Positions 2,467 to 25,461 of a DNA stretch of 64,000 nucleotides are shown piece after piece. Every line of letters begins with the position of its first letter. Positions within the stretch are counted from its first letter, which is position 1. Position numbers and translations under genes: made by a program. The stretch lies in sequence record OZ413489.1. The stretch is one strand, 5' to 3'. Below the pieces are notes generated by a model. That model did not search any database and was not told the DNA's origin. It saw only the letters and a list, made by a program, of their open reading frames with translations. The stretch is from a phage.

Positions 2467-4896
2467 ATGAGCATGTGGTCGTTCGACTTTGAGTCATCCG
2501 GTTTGCTGGAAGACCCAGATCTTTATTATCACTGCGGCCTGTTTAAAGAGCTGAATAAGAACCGTTTTATGCTGTTCCTTCCTCTAAATGACCGCACACA
2601 CTACTCCGAGGAGGATATAGAAAAGGCTAAGAACTTCATTCTGGCAAAGAAAACTCTTTATAAAGATTTTGAAGTTCGCATAGCAGATTTTTCAGAGTTG
2701 GAAGGTTGGCTTACAGGAAATTCTGACTGGTCACCAACAGCTTTGAACTGCCATAACTGCTACAGTTATGACTTTATGCTGATGGAAAGATTATCTGGTA
2801 TTCATTTTGATATGTTCCGTGATCCTAAATGTATGGGGACTATCAACGATCACCAGGTTAACCTGTTTGATACGTTGGCGATGAGCCGAATCTTGTGGCC
2901 TGATCGCCCTTTACCAAAAGGTTGTCCGGACTCTGTATTCAACCCGGTTACTAAGAAAATGCAGCCTGTTGGTCCTCACGGCCTTATGGCATGGGGCTAC
3001 GCCCTTGGTAACCAGAAAGTTCAAATTGATGACTGGCGCGATCTTCCGTTGTGGAAGTATGTGGATCGTGTATTCGAGGACGTTATCATCCAGGAGCTGC
3101 TCTGGAAAGAGCTGGTAGCGGAATCAAAAGGTGTATTCTACGGCAAATCTGACATGCAGAACTTTATGTACGATCCGGCCAAAGAGAAGCCGAAAGGGTT
3201 CAAGAAGATCACCTGGAAGAACGCATTACGTCGAGGCATGCTGCAGCACTTCCTGATGGAGCTGCAGGCCCGTCAGGGTGTATACTTCGACATAGATGGA
3301 GCTATTGCTTTACGTGACCGTTGCGATGCGTGGATGAAAGAAATCGCTGATCGTGTTGAACCACAACTACCTTTAAAAGAGCTGTCAATGTCTCAGCGGC
3401 CCAAGTTCCCTGAAAAGCCGTTTAACCAAGACGGGACAATCTCTAATAATGGTTGGAAATGGTTAAAAGATAAGCTTGGCTATCCTGTAGACATGAGTGC
3501 TTTAGAGTTCAAAGCCCTGCCTAAGCGAGCATTTACCTCTACAGGAGATGTCAGCAAGATGGGGATAAAATGGTGTGAAGAGATGGGCTGCAAAGACCCC
3601 GATAAGATGGCTGATTTCTTGAGAGGCTATATTAAGGGCACCTCCACACCACAACCCTTACCTAAAGAGCTGATGGATCAGGCAATAAGTGATCTGCAGC
3701 AGAAGCGAATGCCTGACTGCAAGATACCTATGAAAATCAGCAATCAGGACGACATCAAGCGATACCTAATCAGTGCTGGTTGGCTCCCAACAATGTGGAG
3801 AACTAAAGATGTAACTAAAGACAGCAAGAAGAAAGCTTTACCTGATGCAGATGTTGATGCACGAGTATATGCATATATGGACGAGCTTTTGGAGTCAGAG
3901 TATTGTGACCTAATTATCAACTTCTGGAACAAAACTGATGCTAAGTTCCAGACAACCGTGCACAAGTTCCGAAGCTTTCCTAACTCCGAAAGGATTAAAA
4001 AGGAAGTATTCGGGAAAATACGTAGAAAAGCCAGGGCACTTATTACTTCTCCGCAACTGAAAGATACGTTTGGACACCTATGCCCAAATCTTGAAAAATT
4101 GAACGGAGAGATGGCTAAAGATATCGTCTTGTGGTTATCATTGCGAAACCGCAGATCGGTCCTTGATCCAATCAAGGAGGATAAGGTTGATACTGGTCTT
4201 CTTAATCACCCACGTTTGAAGATTGACCATAAGCTTCCTGCTAAAAGCTCTGGATTAACAAACACTTCCAGACAGAAACACAGTATTTGTGCAAACATGC
4301 CTAAACCATCTCCTAAAGTAGTTATGGGTAAAGAGATGCGTAGTCTGTGGGGTGTTCCTCCAGGATACTTTGAGATCGGTATTGACGGGTCCAACTTAGA
4401 GCAGCTCATCGGGGCTTGGGGTGCCTTTGAGTTCGACAACGGCTTGTATTATGATGTTGTAAGTAACGGAGACGCACACCAAAACAATGCTGAGGCATAT
4501 ACAAAAGTGGCAGGCAGAGAGGTGTCCCGTAACGACGGTAAACCTATCACGTATGGGGTTATGTACGGGGCACAAAAAGATAAAGTTGCAGATATGCTGG
4601 ACATCTCCCCAGAGTTGGGACAAAGGGTAATCGATGCACTCTGGGATGCCAACCCAGGTCTTAAGGGGCGCAAAGAGGATCTGGAGAAATTCTGGGAAGC
4701 AACAGGTAAGAAGTTTATCTACTCTTTTGATGGTCATGCTATCTGGACCCGATCTAAACACTCTTTACTTAATGCATACCAACAAAATGGCGGTGCATCG
4801 TTGTGTGACTTAGTTGGAATACTCATGCACCACCAGATGGTGAAGCGTGGGTGGTACGATGAAGGTGTTCGTCGTATTATTTATTACCATAAATAA
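2467..4896 (+). CDS. DNA polymerase, family A (T7 / Pol I type)
   Basis: 809 aa; N-terminal exo motif FDFESSG; motif A-like IGIDGSNLEQL; motif B-like KPITYGVMYGAQ. Confidence 0.85.
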   Translation: MSMWSFDFESSGLLEDPDLYYHCGLFKELNKNRFMLFLPLNDRTHYSEEDIEKAKNFILAKKTLYKDFEVRIADFSELEGWLTGNSDWSPTALNCHNCYSYDFMLMERLSGIHFDMFRDPKCMGTINDHQVNLFDTLAMSRILWPDRPLPKGCPDSVFNPVTKKMQPVGPHGLMAWGYALGNQKVQIDDWRDLPLWKYVDRVFEDVIIQELLWKELVAESKGVFYGKSDMQNFMYDPAKEKPKGFKKITWKNALRRGMLQHFLMELQARQGVYFDIDGAIALRDRCDAWMKEIADRVEPQLPLKELSMSQRPKFPEKPFNQDGTISNNGWKWLKDKLGYPVDMSALEFKALPKRAFTSTGDVSKMGIKWCEEMGCKDPDKMADFLRGYIKGTSTPQPLPKELMDQAISDLQQKRMPDCKIPMKISNQDDIKRYLISAGWLPTMWRTKDVTKDSKKKALPDADVDARVYAYMDELLESEYCDLIINFWNKTDAKFQTTVHKFRSFPNSERIKKEVFGKIRRKARALITSPQLKDTFGHLCPNLEKLNGEMAKDIVLWLSLRNRRSVLDPIKEDKVDTGLLNHPRLKIDHKLPAKSSGLTNTSRQKHSICANMPKPSPKVVMGKEMRSLWGVPPGYFEIGIDGSNLEQLIGAWGAFEFDNGLYYDVVSNGDAHQNNAEAYTKVAGREVSRNDGKPITYGVMYGAQKDKVADMLDISPELGQRVIDALWDANPGLKGRKEDLEKFWEATGKKFIYSFDGHAIWTRSKHSLLNAYQQNGGASLCDLVGILMHHQMVKRGWYDEGVRRIIYYHK

Positions 4897-4920
4897 CATT
4901 GTGGCTTCATAGAGTAATCT

Positions 4921-5079
4921 ATGTCGAATAACCTCTTTAACTGCGGGAAGCCTAAACCTTATGGCAAGGTAATCCGCAACGAAGCGCTCAAAAGAGCGAA
5001 CGCTCAGAGGCCATTCCGAAAGGAAGTAGACCAGCAAGTGCGGTCGAAATGGGAGGATTCCTGTGGTTGCTTATCATAG
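4921..5079 (+). CDS. small hypothetical protein (52 aa)
   Basis: ATG ORF below the track size cutoff in the gap after the polymerase gene; weak RBS. Confidence 0.3.
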   Translation: MSNNLFNCGKPKPYGKVIRNEALKRANAQRPFRKEVDQQVRSKWEDSCGCLS

Positions 5080-5163
5080 GAATATGAGATGGTCCGATCC
5101 TACGTGAAAACGTATGGCTATGCACGTAATGGTGCGGGGTAGCTTAACGACCTACCTGAACTA

Positions 5164-13718: not shown

Positions 13719-14044
13719 CAGAAATCATCATTTCAACTGCAGGGTATGTGTTCCTGACAATCATTGCACTGACTATTTTGGTGACAGTGTATGGGTTTGT
13801 TATCCTTCCTATCCTTGAGACATTTAGTTTGTGTCGGTGTTGGAGAAAAGCTTACGGTCCACAACCATGGAAGGACTGGCCCCACCTGGTGCGCTTAGCG
13901 TTCTCTTATGCTTACGATCACTCCAGTAGTGCATGCATAACCGGATACCACGCCCACAACTGGAGCTGGGAAGGGTTGAGGAAATGGAATGTTACAAAGA
14001 CCATACCTCTGCGCATGTACAAACCTAAAAACAAAGACAACTGA
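13715..14044 (+). CDS. hypothetical membrane protein
   Basis: 109 aa; N-terminal hydrophobic segment. Confidence 0.5.
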   Translation: MTEIIISTAGYVFLTIIALTILVTVYGFVILPILETFSLCRCWRKAYGPQPWKDWPHLVRLAFSYAYDHSSSACITGYHAHNWSWEGLRKWNVTKTIPLRMYKPKNKDN

Positions 14045-14079
14045 TACTTGAAAATTCTTGGCATATCAAGTATAAGGGG

Positions 14080-14540
14080 GATTTCTAAAATGGATTTCCT
14101 CCTTTTGATATTTCACCGGGCCGGATATTTTAAAATTCTTAGAAAATCAGAAAATGGATCGAAAACTAAAATGGATTTTTCAGAGTAGGCGCGACAAGCT
14201 GAATAACTCATCCTATCGTTTGCACCATATTCCAGGCCACCATTATAGATTTCCCACACATGCTAACCTCCCTCTACTAGAACTTCCTCCACTTACCCTT
14301 GACCTTCTATGGTAACAATCTAACCGCTATCTTGAAGTTGCTGTGCAGCTTTCCAGGTACTCGATCTACTTTTCATTTCAGGGCTTGGATTTTCTGAAAA
14401 TTTTTCTCGATAAATTTCTCAGTACTCGATCTGTTTTTCGTTTTCTGAATCGGATTTTCTGGAAATCGTTCCGGCTCTCGACCTGAAATTTTTGGGGACG
14501 AAATCGATTTTTCGTTTTCAGAAATGGATTTTTAAAATTT
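14080..14540. repeat. iteron-like direct repeats (AAAATGGAT x4; about 35 bp TCGATCT...GGATTTTCTG unit x3)
   Basis: AAAATGGAT at about 14087, 14151, 14168, 14522; longer units at about 14358, 14422, 14501; AT-rich, no ORF. Confidence 0.6.
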
Positions 14541-14646
14541 CTATATGGGAATATTTTATGGGATACTGTTTTATAGGAAATTGTTACGGAGGGTAATTAG
14601 CGTGCTAATTAAATTTATTAAATGCGAGGAGTTCTCATTTAGAATT

Positions 14647-14838
14647 TTGAATGATAATCATTCTCGTTTGCAGAATAACGGGCAGGCCCGGTGATTGTCT
14701 CCCGGCCCCTACTGCCCCGGCTTGTTATTATAGTATCACACAGGACAAAGAAAGCAAGGATTTTTTGCATAAATTTTTAAATGATAATGATAACCGTTCT
14801 CATTTTATGCAGCGCCCATCCCCGGTGGTTGTCTCCCC
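14647..14838. repeat. two tandem units: Fur-box-like AT core + TTCTCRTTT..GCAG + GC-rich tail
   Basis: Unit 1 14647-14703, unit 2 14779-14838; cores match the Fur consensus at about 15-16 of 19 positions by hand alignment. Confidence 0.5.
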
Positions 14839-15060
14839 CGTCACCGGTGCCTGCCGTCCTTTCGATAGGTATATCGTGCCACCTGGCGGGGCCGCTGTCA
14901 ACACTTTTCAAAAAATTTTTCTAACCTGATGCGCTAACCGCTGCAACCTGGCGGGGTCAGCCTGGCAGGACCTAACTGACCGGGTAGGAGAGAATGAAGG
15001 CTTGTAAACCTGGTGGGCCTATGCTACAGGATAGGTAACAATTGAAGAGGAGGTACAAAA

Positions 15061-15228
15061 ATGAAAGGTAATATGATCCCCCTAGAAAATGTAGCTATTA
15101 ATGACGCTGAGGCTATCGCCCTGGTTGAAAAGGCTATGGCGGGAGCGTTGGAACATAAAGAAGAGTACGAAAAATGGTGGTTAACCTGGCGGGGGCGGCA
15201 GGTGGATTCTATCATAAAAATAATTTAA
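15061..15228 (+). CDS. small hypothetical protein (55 aa)
   Basis: ATG ORF below track cutoff with strong RBS GAAGAGGAGG. Confidence 0.4.
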   Translation: MKGNMIPLENVAINDAEAIALVEKAMAGALEHKEEYEKWWLTWRGRQVDSIIKII

Positions 15229-15236
15229 AATAGTCG

Positions 15237-15266
15237 TTGACAACAAGGTTAATCATGGTATTATTA
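15237..15266 (+). promoter_or_regulatory. sigma70-type promoter (TTGACA, -10 TATTAT)
   Basis: Preceded by AATAGTCG as at 6641. Confidence 0.5.
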
Positions 15267-15314
15267 CCCTACAAGGTGAACAACACCGCACTAACCAGTA
15301 AAGAGGATAAATTT

Positions 15315-21707: not shown

Positions 21708-22100
21708 AGAGTTGTCGAGGGGGAGGCCCCCAATCGTTGACCAGATAGATAGGAGTTAAAATCATGGCTATTGTTACCGCTGGCTATCTTCAAAGATGCG
21801 GAAGCAAAACAACGCCGGATCTCAATACATGAGATCATCAACCTTAACGCTGGAGGCACACCATACCGCCCAGGACCTGGCCGTGAGATGGACAATACGC
21901 TAGCGATCCTGAAGATACGCCGTAAACGGTCCTCCCTTACTCTGGACTCATTACACACAATGCAGCCTCCGTTCCAGGTGACCGGGAAACGGATCGCCAG
22001 GTCCTGGACAAAGGCCAATGATCGGACCGTATAAATAAAAGTGTTTTGGTACTGATTTTGGGGTTGACTTGTTCGGCCCCTTTTGCTATTCTTATTAAAC

Positions 22101-22123
22101 GGGCGGCACTTGGGAACAGGGGG
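22101..22123 (-). repeat. third, inverted copy of the GC-rich tail GGCAGGCCCGGTGATTGTCTCCC
   Basis: 22 bp exact reverse-complement match to 14682-14703. Confidence 0.6.
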
Positions 22124-22168
22124 AGACAATCACCGGGCCTGCCTGTCATATAAGAACTATAAAAACCG

Positions 22169-22197
22169 TTGACATCTGCCATGGGGTGGGGTAACAT
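22169..22197 (+). promoter_or_regulatory. sigma70-type promoter (TTGACA-17-TAACAT)
   Basis: Upstream of the 22252 gene. Confidence 0.45.
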
Positions 22198-22251: not shown

Positions 22252-22524
22252 ATGTCAAACTGGATTAATCAAGAAGTCGAATCACGTTTTAATGCTATTT
22301 GGGATCTCATCGAAAAAGAAGACGGCACATCAAGCCCCTACCTCAACAATTTGGAATTCCATTTTGTGGAAGCGATGAACGCAGAACATGATCACGAAGG
22401 TGGCGCGGATGAGTTCGCTAAAGGTTATGGCTTTAACAATGCCAACGAAATGATCGAGGCGGTAGTACTCCAGGCTGAGGAAGATTATCAACTAAAAACG
22501 CTTGAATTCTGCCGCCGCAAGTAA
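22252..22524 (+). CDS. hypothetical protein
   Basis: 90 aa ORF with GAGAGAGGAAA RBS. Confidence 0.55.
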   Translation: MSNWINQEVESRFNAIWDLIEKEDGTSSPYLNNLEFHFVEAMNAEHDHEGGADEFAKGYGFNNANEMIEAVVLQAEEDYQLKTLEFCRRK

Positions 22525-23859: not shown

Positions 23860-24001
23860 TGTCATGTTGTGTCAGTTAGGTCACATTATGTCAGACAAGT
23901 TTTTCTCCTCTTTGTCAAGTGCTGCATGAAAAATTTACAAGCTTGTATGGTAGCATTTTTGCGGCCCTGTTTACATTCAGTAATGTATGTATAATCCTTG
24001 T

Positions 24002-24165
24002 TGTGTGGGCGTTTAGACGTCTAGACGGTTGGAAGTCCACAGGTCAATATCTAATCTATCGGCTGCTAACTATATCCCACACATGTGTGGGCGTTTAGAC
24101 GTCTAGACGGTTGGAAGTCCACAGGTCAATATCTAATCTATCGGCTGCTAACTATATCCCACACA
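24002..24165. repeat. perfect tandem duplication of an 82 bp unit with 8 bp terminal inverted repeats
   Basis: Unit TGTGTGGG...CCCACACA at 24002-24083 and 24084-24165; internal palindromes AGACGTCT / GTCTAGAC. Confidence 0.8.
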
Positions 24166-25461
24166 AATAGTAAGAAATATGATTGTTATATGCGTAAACT
24201 GTAACTCATGTTATCAATCCCTGTATGGATCGCCAGTGGTGCGCATAATAGGTATTATGTTAAATTGCCCGTAATGATAACAGTTCTCACAATGATAGGT
24301 ATTCTCATTCATCCACACAAAATAGGTTGCAAATGTTGTGCCACTGTGTGAACGGCCTGGCCTATTAATTTCTCTCACTGCCTCGATATTTGAGAATTGT
24401 TATAAGAATGAGAAGTATTCCCATTCCGTCCGCCTGGCAGCACTCCTGTAGGTCCTGCAAGGACTCTAGCTGAAAGCTAGACCCTTCGGGCCTCCCTGTA
24501 GGTCAGGTCAAAATCGTGGTAGAATTGGGCCTGTTCAGATATTTCTGGCTGACTCTTCAGGTCTGTGTGGGAAAAGCCAACCTCTCCGGCGGGGCAGGGG
24601 GTCATGACGGGAAAATTGCAGGTCAATTAAAAAATTTACGTGGTGTATGAAGCGCTCTTCAGGTAAGGCATGTATTATGGGATGAAACCCTCTTCAGGCA
24701 ATGATATTTGTGGGTGTGATATTTGCTGGAAAGCCAGATATGACGGGACTCCCGGCGGGGATGGGGTAGTACAGACAGGGAAAATATGAGAATGTAGTTG
24801 GGGAAATTGATCAGACAGGTAGAGTATGGAATATGTTACAAGTATGTTAAATATGGAGGTTGAATATCTGTAGGATTTGTGTGTAAAATCAAAGACTTAA
24901 GGGGTGTTGTGGTATTTTCTATAAATAATTCAAGTTTAATAGGCAATATTTGTCTCTATCCGCTTTGTGTGGTAAACAGATTCAGATTAGATTGGTTTAC
25001 AAGTGTATACATAATATACAAATTAAAGATACAAGAAACCCCCCTCCCCCTTCGGCTACCATTCACCTTTTCCTCTGACTGGTACTTAAACACTTATTCA
25101 GACTCTTCAGGTTATCACCCATATATCATATGGCAGTGACTGGTGTCCTCCGGCCCCTCTTTCGTCACCCGTCCGCTTCGCCATGCTAATGCCATAGCCA
25201 ATGGTTCGGTTGTTCACTCTGTTCACTCAGGTGTATCTCCATACCCCTTCAAACCGAAGAGAACAGAAAACCCGAATTACTCGGTAAAAGAAAAGAGAAG
25301 AACTTAATTTTATCAGGATAGGCAAGAATGTCAAGGCATGACTGCTCACTAAACAAGCAAACAGTCATGTGTGGAAGGTAAGTGATTGTGGTGGTGGGAA
25401 ATTTAGTTGAAAGATGTGTTATAGGTGCTCCCAGCACTTTAGCCGGGTAGCTAATTGTGTG

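Follow-up and report, generated by a model that had tools for sequence, protein, structure and literature searches.

Candidate host-Fur-controlled convergent-promoter modules at the borders of an early-gene block in an rV5-like phage

Two tandem units in a 64,000-nt stretch of phage DNA (record OZ413489.1, hereafter the window) each appear to be a composite regulatory module and not a gene, in which an AT-rich core would serve as an operator for the Fur protein of the host. The reading that we prefer, and to which we give a probability of roughly 0.45, is that the units are host-Fur-controlled convergent-promoter modules, where a Fur-repressed rightward promoter would converge on a leftward one. 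The identity of the boxes, their conservation, their fixed spacing and a recurrent promoter match on the opposite strand are read directly from the DNA. The presence of two near-perfect Fur sites in a virulent E. coli phage suggests that such a phage may sense the iron status of its host, and iron-responsive control of phage genes through these boxes is plausible.

The window belongs to an rV5-like myovirus (Vequintavirus), and its positions 14300-15100 are 97-98% identical to phages EdH4, ECML-10 and FFH2. Among the rV5-like phages are typing phages for O157:H7 and phages isolated on avian pathogenic E. coli, and such phages are used in therapeutic and biocontrol mixtures. Between 16 and 22 GenBank records of the MG0656xx series, labeled "Campylobacter phage" with C. 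jejuni given as host, also match these regions; the records listed are 94-99% identical to E. coli rV5-like phages, and their host labels look doubtful. Up to ~23 kb the genes of the window are plus-strand genes, and from ~26.7 kb onward they are minus-strand genes. The segment at ~23976-24434 is the counterpart of the 459-bp direct terminal repeat annotated in phage Gotham, which would place the two units ~9.5 kb, and a third copy described below ~2 kb, from the physical end of the genome. Two direct repeats of ~82 nt were also seen inside this counterpart, at 24003-24166.

Units 1 and 2 on one side and the third copy on the other flank a block of small early genes whose function is not assigned. 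Searches of the flanking genes against Pfam and PHROGs returned families of unknown function only, DUF7170 among them, and a tRNA/tmRNA scan of the window found none. A group I intron (Rfam RF00028, 64.7 bits) is located elsewhere, at 4881-5116, at the end of an 809-aa ORF (2467-4896).

Fur-like boxes in the window and the mntH operator of the host

Both tandem units proposed earlier from the sequence alone, at 14647-14703 and 14779-14838, are present as described. Two pairs of segments emerge from a repeat finder, 14637-14669/14773-14805 (73% identity) and 14687-14703/14821-14837 (94% identity), at a spacing of 134-136 nt between the units. The string CCGGTGRTTGTCTCCC occurs exactly three times in the 64-kb window, at 14688, at 14822 and, on the minus strand, at 22121, with 0.43 occurrences expected. 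The GC content of the tails stands out as the sequence-only reading had it, with 75% against 20-37% in the flanks. The same reading had placed an exact inverted copy of the tail, 22 bp long, at 22101-22123. The exact copy exists, and it is the position that needs correction by ~20 nt: the 23-nt string GGCAGGCCCGGTGATTGTCTCCC is found at 14681-14703 on the plus strand and at 22121-22143 on the minus strand, with 0 matches in 100 shuffles.

The whole window was scanned with the classical 19-mer Fur consensus GATAATGATAATCATTATC and with its palindromic form AATGATAATCATTATCATT, a 9-1-9 inverted repeat. Against the classical consensus, TTGAATGATAATCATTCTC at 14647 matches at 15 of 19 positions and GATAATGATAACCGTTCTC at 14783 at 16 of 19; against the palindromic form, the matches are 17/19 at 14650 and 16/19 at 14780 and 14786. 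The boxes of units 1 and 2 are thereby the two best Fur matches in the whole 64 kb, and dinucleotide shuffles of the window yield only 0.05-0.1 sites with three or fewer mismatches. The sites overlap one another, starting at 14644, 14647, 14650 and 14653 in unit 1 and at 14780, 14783 and 14786 in unit 2. This 3- and 6-bp phasing is typical of overlapping sites in E. coli Fur clusters (PMC2189734). A further, eroded box upstream of unit 1 (Table 1) aligns with the intact distal box of phage GAP31 and relatives, in which the 29-nt step is kept.

Up to four more Fur-like boxes were observed at 24272-24312 and 24389-24427. Two of them were scored by the scan, AATGATAGGTATTCTCATT with four mismatches and AATGAGAAGTATTCCCATT with five, and two overlapping others were recognized by eye. 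As they lie inside the equivalent of the 459-bp repeat of Gotham, virion DNA would have boxes at both ends.

Table 1. Positions of predicted features of units 1 and 2 and of the third module (module T) in the window.
Feature	Positions	Strand	Remarks
Eroded distal Fur-like box AATGCGAGGAGTTCTCATT	14621-14639		12/19 by eye; 29 nt upstream of unit 1 box
Unit 1 Fur box	14647-14668		Overlapping 19-mers at 14647 and 14650; palindrome GAATGAT-A-ATCATTC
Candidate promoter P_fur1	14647-14676	+	-35 TTGAAT at 14647-14652, 18-nt spacer, -10 CAGAAT at 14671-14676
Unit 1 tail	14674-14729		Hairpin potential AATAAC/GTTATT, GGGCAG/CTGCCC, CCGG/CCGG; core CCGGTGATTGTCTCC at 14688-14702
Putative promoter P_rev1	14727-14757	-	-35 TTGCTT at 14757-14752; -10 TACTAT at 14735-14730, overlapping TATAAT at 14732-14727
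Unit 2 Fur boxes	14780-14804		Overlapping sites at 14780, 14783 and 14786; 16/19 to both consensus forms
Unit 2 tail	14809-14854		Core CCGGTGGTTGTCTCC at 14822-14836; inner stem CCGGTG/CACCGG, outer GCAG/CTGC
Putative promoter P_rev2	14873-14901	-	-35 TTGACA at 14901-14896, 17-nt spacer, -10 CACGAT at 14878-14873
Module T terminator-like hairpin overlapping P_rev(T)	22060-22092	+	TTGACT-N17-TATTCT at 22064-22092
Module T leader hairpin	22099-22150	+	Complement of tail core GGGAGACAATCACCGGGCCTGCC at 22121-22143; fold z -2.98 on plus strand
Module T eroded Fur-box position ATAAGAACTATAAAAACCG	22150-22168		Homologous boxes in relatives
Second plus-strand promoter	22169-22197	+	TTGACA-N17-TAACAT, ahead of gene 22252-22524

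The unit 1 box was compared with 5,426 E. coli genomes, where it matches a single locus, present in 3,923 chromosomes as the exact 19-nt string TGATAATCATTCTCGTTTG. This locus is the gap between nupC and mntH, and the palindrome center lies at -56 from the mntH start. A 24-site information model lists a 19.9-bit Fur site for mntH at the same -56 position (PMC2189734), and mntH is repressed by iron-loaded Fur (PMC4361602). When unit 1 is set against the 19-bp mntH site, 17 of 19 bases are equal and the two outermost bases differ, both of them towards the consensus. In E. coli DH1 (locus L170, 1199-1219), the unit 1 box together with its 3' flank CGTTTG is identical to the mntH operator over 19 nt. 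Such an identity could reflect either capture from the host or convergence. In the E. coli genomes the unit 2 box gave 85% matches, adjoining non-iron genes or an HlyD-family exporter, and is not informative in this respect.

Conservation of the modules in relatives and uncultured viruses

Outside the genus, the 14.3-15.1 kb gap can be aligned only from the box to the tail core, with relatives such as Seunavirus, Certrevirus, Mydovirus, Phapecoctavirus and an Aeromonas Plateaulakevirus. Across 13 phages (Vequintavirus, Seunavirus, Certrevirus, Mydovirus, Phapecoctavirus and others) the proximal box is found 38-41 nt from the core in most unit-type copies. Additional boxes often occur at 29-nt steps, and relatives carry from one to six boxes, with six in phiWec190. 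The boxes are kept in position across at least seven phage genera while their flanks diverge; together with their rank in the window and their near-identity to the mntH site, this speaks for the earlier proposal that the AT-rich cores resemble Fur boxes. The tail core is invariant among the rV5-like phages examined. Its flank alternates between CAGGCC, CACCCC and CACACC among very close relatives (14683-14688 and 22136-22141 in the window; loci L065, L162, L173, L174 and L175), and it does so independently in the two copies of one genome, without compensating change.

A metagenome search keyed on the core alone, and therefore blind to the boxes, returned mostly chance coding matches and about seven relevant loci. 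Three divergent non-coding matches (L276, L216 and L194) have Fur-like boxes at the same place. Scanning IMG/VR with AACGGGCGGCACYTGGG gave almost exclusively chance or coding matches. The exact Fur 19-mer AATGATAATCATTCTCRTT was found in at least 111 distinct IMG/VR viral contexts, most of them unrelated to the rV5 lineage (loci L005-L124). Among these listed contexts, 45% have the box in arrays, 50 contain two or more Fur-like sites within 250 nt (one contains eight), and 42% adjoin a sigma-70-like promoter, compared to 21% at random control positions in the same loci. Several of the boxes follow closely after perfect TTGACA-N17-TATAAT promoters. Contig L094 has an explicit TTGACA promoter ahead of its box and, on the far side of the tail, a TTGACA-N18-TATAAT promoter that points towards it. 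A 19-mer common to such different phages and to a host operator is most simply explained if it is read by a host protein.

The third copy at 22.1 kb had been taken for an inverted tail only. The inverted tail is there, but it does not stand by itself. An nhmmer profile of the units matches the 22.1-kb element on the minus strand, and in GAP31, F5M2A and CR3 the match spans the Fur box, which argues that the third copy (module T) is an inverted paralogue of the whole module. At the corresponding position the box is Fur-like in GAP31 (5 mismatches), F5M2A (2) and CR3 (3), and absent in the E. coli phages; module T retains a Fur box in Cronobacter and Pantoea phages. The predicted promoter P_rev(T) and the hairpin are kept in Vequintavirinae and Stephanstirmvirinae, with the -35 element inside the terminator-like hairpin. 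The idea that the units are relics of a mobile element finds no support in the form in which it was put forward, as the copies are paralogous promoter modules conserved in position.

The unit core and its inverted copy are perfectly complementary in the window, and this complementarity is degraded in ESCO5, GAP31 and L082. In a co-evolution test of the duplex between unit and module T, the own partner ranked from first to fourth of eight in energy, with no signal beyond relatedness. Because the own partner is not systematically the best and the complementarity degrades, it appears that a shared reader of the core, and not obligatory pairing, has kept these paralogous copies similar. A separate observation comes from a 214-kb metagenome contig (L201, ~1090-1165), which carries an extended -10 promoter, GGGGAGACAATCACCG and, 40 nt further, GGGCAGG plus CGGTGATTGTCTCCCC. 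There, core and anti-core fall in one predicted transcript and would form a 16-bp stem. As a single case, this stem may keep the idea of pairing between unit and module T alive.

Tails, promoters and possible modes of action

The arms of the tail hairpins vary between lineages, and the 15-nt core is nearly constant and located in the loop in most single-sequence folds. Such folds of the unit 1 and unit 2 tails are no better than those of shuffled sequences (z of -0.01 and -0.88, respectively). In a hand-drawn structure 73% of the cells pair, compared to 34-50% when partners are slid, and covariation on this structure is not significant (70 of 500 shuffles reach the observed score). RNAalifold on 17 unit-type copies gave no consensus structure. 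A wobble test counted 162 G.U against 163 A.C cells, a balance that favors neither strand as the transcribed one. At the gathering threshold, Rfam recognized in the window only the group I intron mentioned above; at E<=5 around the units it returned one chance-level thermometer match, and nothing in three related loci. A single terminator-like site came out of a scan of 14000-15300; it lies ahead of the units, at 14488-14525, and no such site was found after either unit. The U-tracts that follow the tail hairpins are interrupted.

Several identities were considered for the tail and found no support. A Fur-regulated small RNA of the RyhB or PrrF type would be one without terminator, known family, consensus structure or significant covariation, and the suggestion in the sequence-only reading that the units might be small RNA genes found no backing in Rfam, in canonical terminators, in fold z-scores or in covariation. 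By that reading, a tail that proved to be a piece of a conserved coding gene would have spoken against it, and this is not what was found. Phage FFH2 has ORF179/ORF180 annotated over unit 1, many records annotate no gene there, nomine is without an ORF at this place, and the same tail is kept in the opposite orientation in an intergenic gap at 22.1 kb. The intrinsic terminator annotated at the homologous spot of phiTE spans only 11 nt of the stem, and none was detected at the tails on either strand. The pseudo-ToxI locus of phiTE is unrelated. Sites for IscR, IHF, DnaA and CRP were aligned with the core by eye, and none fitted.

The candidate rightward promoter of unit 1, P_fur1, has an alternative register (ATGATA-N17-AATAAC). 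It matches the sigma-70 consensus at 8 of 12 positions and was not called by a consensus scan of 14000-15300; with a match of only this quality, we treat the rightward promoter as predicted. On this strand the proximal box opens with TTG, and TTGAAT and nnGAAT are kept in most unit-type copies at fixed spacing. Unit 2 has no clear equivalent of P_fur1 and no equivalent -10. The aerobactin promoter iucA P1 resembles P_fur1 in having the same hexamer layout with a Fur box that begins at base 3 of the -35 (TTGATA-N17-CATAAT, confirmed upstream of iucA).

On the opposite strand, P_rev1 (TTGCTT-N16-TACTAT) is a weak match of 7 to 7.5 of 12 that points leftward into the tail. The -10 of P_rev2 reads CACAAT in FFH2 and CATAAT in L124. 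In an alignment of 28 module copies, 27 have an opposite-strand sigma-70 match at a near-constant offset (26-33 nt). Most copies have a -35 of TTGCAA, TTGACT or TTGATC, a spacer of 16-18 nt and a -10 of TATATT, TATTCT or TATTAT. Given this position, the tail would correspond to the first 40-55 nt downstream of the opposite-strand promoter.

Other repeats surround the promoters. The motif ACCTGGCGGGG occurs four times (14880-14896, 14945-14961, 15008-15020 and 15183-15199) and lies within the spacers of sigma-70-type promoters in the window, P_rev2 among them, as well as in phiTE and ESCO5; it may be the operator of an unknown regulator. Three direct repeats of ~65 nt with GGTACTCGATCT and T-rich runs occupy 14347-14532, and in other Vequintavirinae three to six GGTTCTCGATCG (GATC) repeats fill the corresponding stretch, immediately past the Fur boxes. 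The repeats at 14347-14532 could be origin iterons or a regulator array. In non-rV5 relatives (L166, 1650-1670; L158, L159, L160 and L163), CTTTACAA-N2-CTTTACAA is found just upstream of the opposite-strand promoter. The other strand reads GTAAA-N5-GTAAA, which we take to resemble the direct repeats of response regulators such as CpxR or OmpR. Beyond it come a ~75-nt block conserved between genera (CTACCGGCGATCCACCTTCC...GCCGTGGGGTGGCG) and the DUF7170 gene, which is small and lies on the minus strand. The direct repeat, the block and the DUF7170 gene are all absent from the window, where unit 2 occupies their place.

In the convergent-promoter reading, a weak sigma-70 promoter in unit 1 would point rightward to the early genes, with the operator lying over its -35 and spacer, and transcription from this promoter would start at the GC-rich tail. 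A sigma-70 promoter on the opposite strand, presumably constitutive, would face it across ~40 nt. With promoters facing each other at this distance, both convergent transcripts would have the tail as their 5' end and would be complementary to each other there. In cells with ample iron, Fe-Fur would sit on the box, keeping the rightward promoter silent and the leftward one unhindered. Under iron shortage the box would be vacated and the rightward promoter would fire, hindering the leftward one by collision or by antisense pairing. The direction of transcription across the module would in this way depend on iron. In the 22.1-kb paralogue, the sigma-70 promoter would run with the genes and the Fur box would have decayed in the E. 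coli phages. What we infer from the sequence features described above is that Fur binds, that the rightward promoter exists, where both transcripts start and that the two promoters interfere. As a tentative extension, which we hold to be possible though rather doubtful, the rV5/PVP-SE1/phAPEC8 lineages and many uncultured phages might read host iron directly through arrays of host-Fur operators, and in the rV5/PVP-SE1/phAPEC8 lineage the convergent switch might gate early genes or a transcription-activated origin in response to the iron supply.

The strongest rival, unlikely as we judge it, is that Fur would act as an iron-dependent roadblock or boundary for leftward transcripts starting at ~14722 and ~14866. 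Only in iron-poor cells would these transcripts then enter the GATC-rich 14347-14532 segment, a possible transcription-activated or transcription-primed origin whose activation could be likened to that of T4 oriF or ColE1. The opposite-strand promoter is the only one matched in nearly all copies, and every unit-type copy, like the module T copies of GAP31, CR3 and F5M2A, has a Fur box downstream of it. At ~+60 from that promoter, a box would be better placed for a roadblock than for an operator. In the T copies of CR3 and F5M2A, moreover, the Fur box is kept though a 30-nt insertion parts it from the GAAT hexamer, from which it follows that the box has a use with no need of the rightward promoter. 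A roadblock explains this retention in copies where the rightward promoter is disrupted. Arrays of up to six boxes at 29-nt steps also suit a block better than an operator, GATC repeats lie directly beyond the boxes in all genera, and the leftward RNA would be G-rich at its 5' end. Against this, the fixed coupling of 38-41 nt is that of box to core, whereas the distance from the opposite-strand promoter to the core varies. No initiator-like gene was recognized beside the repeats with Pfam and PHROGs, and to our knowledge these phages have no mapped origin and Fur roadblocks at +60 are not an established mechanism.

It seems improbable that the boxes serve as a decoy, whereby replicating phage DNA would titrate host Fur and de-repress iron uptake, as in the multicopy Fur titration assay, with the iron supplying enzymes such as ribonucleotide reductase. 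Tandem arrays do grow and shrink between relatives (one to six boxes) and are common in unrelated viral contigs, and the extra, weaker Fur-like boxes at 24272-24427 in the terminal-repeat counterpart would add to the number. The constant distance of the boxes from a promoter-like hexamer and from the core would be superfluous in a decoy, and rV5-like phages retain only two good boxes. E. coli Fur is abundant, with thousands of copies per cell, which makes the stoichiometry of a decoy doubtful.

We give equally little credit to the view that units 1 and 2 encode Fur-repressed small RNAs, the loop of which, UGAUUGUCUCC, would act in trans on the genes past 22.2 kb by pairing with the complementary leader at 22121-22143. 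In its favor are the perfect complementarity over 23 nt, with both partners on one strand of the window, and the location of the core in the loop of most single-sequence folds, and in L201 core and anti-core are only 40 nt apart and can form the 16-bp stem. The complementarity is not kept in ESCO5, GAP31 and L082, however, and the own partner ranks anywhere from first to fourth of eight. The GG/CC variants of the flank differ between unit 1 and T copies within genomes, and the lack of a terminator after the units, of fold scores beyond -0.01 and -0.88 and of an Rfam family weighs against this view as well.

Least probable of all is that the palindromes are not read by Fur and are sites of a phage regulator, AT-rich upstream elements or decaying, functionless cassette remnants: AT-rich palindromes arise easily in promoter regions, and E. 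coli phages show no obvious harm from the loss of the box in the T copy, but one exact 19-mer recurs in at least 111 unrelated viral contexts and in the mntH Fur operator of the host, phages so different are unlikely to have one regulator of their own in common, and the boxes outlast their flanks across genera.

Comparison with known systems

Operators for Fur are well known from bacterial iron genes and from a small number of prophage cargo genes. A literature search that covered few subscription-journal papers found no Fur boxes in the control regions of virulent phages. If Fur binds the boxes described here, these phages would change their programme in iron-starved hosts. Iron starvation is the normal state of bacteria in infected tissue, and the modules would then provide a simple link between host nutritional immunity and phage performance. 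The occurrence of the exact box in at least 111 unrelated viral contexts suggests that the phenomenon may be broad.

The closest parallels are the enterobacterial Fur-repressed sigma-70 promoters of iucA P1 and mntH, which share with the units a 19-bp inverted-repeat operator, lying in unit 1 over the -35 and spacer of a candidate promoter, and the 3- and 6-bp phasing. The phage modules differ from them in belonging to a virulent phage, in their location at the edge of the early genes, in the fixed distance to a GC-rich core, in the convergent promoter and in weaker hexamers, and their operator is a predicted one. In RyhB and PrrF, too, a short non-coding segment that is GC-rich and structured follows immediately on a Fur box, and prrF1 and prrF2 are duplicated in tandem like units 1 and 2. 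Unlike these RNAs, the units have neither sequence or Rfam similarity to them nor a Rho-independent terminator.

Among phage elements, the PeSL cassettes of T4-type phages combine an early sigma-70 promoter with a stem-loop, are repeated, and flank small variable early genes. The modules resemble them in the repetition of promoter and stem-loop in the genome and in the -35 of module T inside a terminator-like hairpin. They depart from PeSL cassettes in that the copies are mutually inverted, number two or three per genome, and carry a conserved 15-nt core and the operator of a host repressor. The ColE1 RNA I/RNA II pair, pR/pL of coliphage 186 and P22 sar likewise have facing promoters with overlapping, complementary 5' regions capable of forming hairpins. 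In contrast to those switches, the predicted overlap in the modules is only ~40 nt and one arm is apparently under a host metal sensor.

The use of a host global-regulator operator in a phage control region has precedents in the Fur site of the Stx1 promoter in lambdoid prophages, in the Pho boxes of cyanophages and in LexA boxes. Strong Fur sites are also found in prophage genes such as nohA and ynaE/ydfK (PMC2189734). Unlike those prophage cases, which concern cargo genes of temperate phages, the boxes described here belong to a strictly virulent 137-kb myovirus and lie at an early-region boundary and in the terminal repeat. The parts, a Fur operator and sigma-70 promoters, are of known kinds; what appears to be new is that they are combined with a 15-nt core, in a conserved arrangement, at the edges of the early region of a virulent phage.
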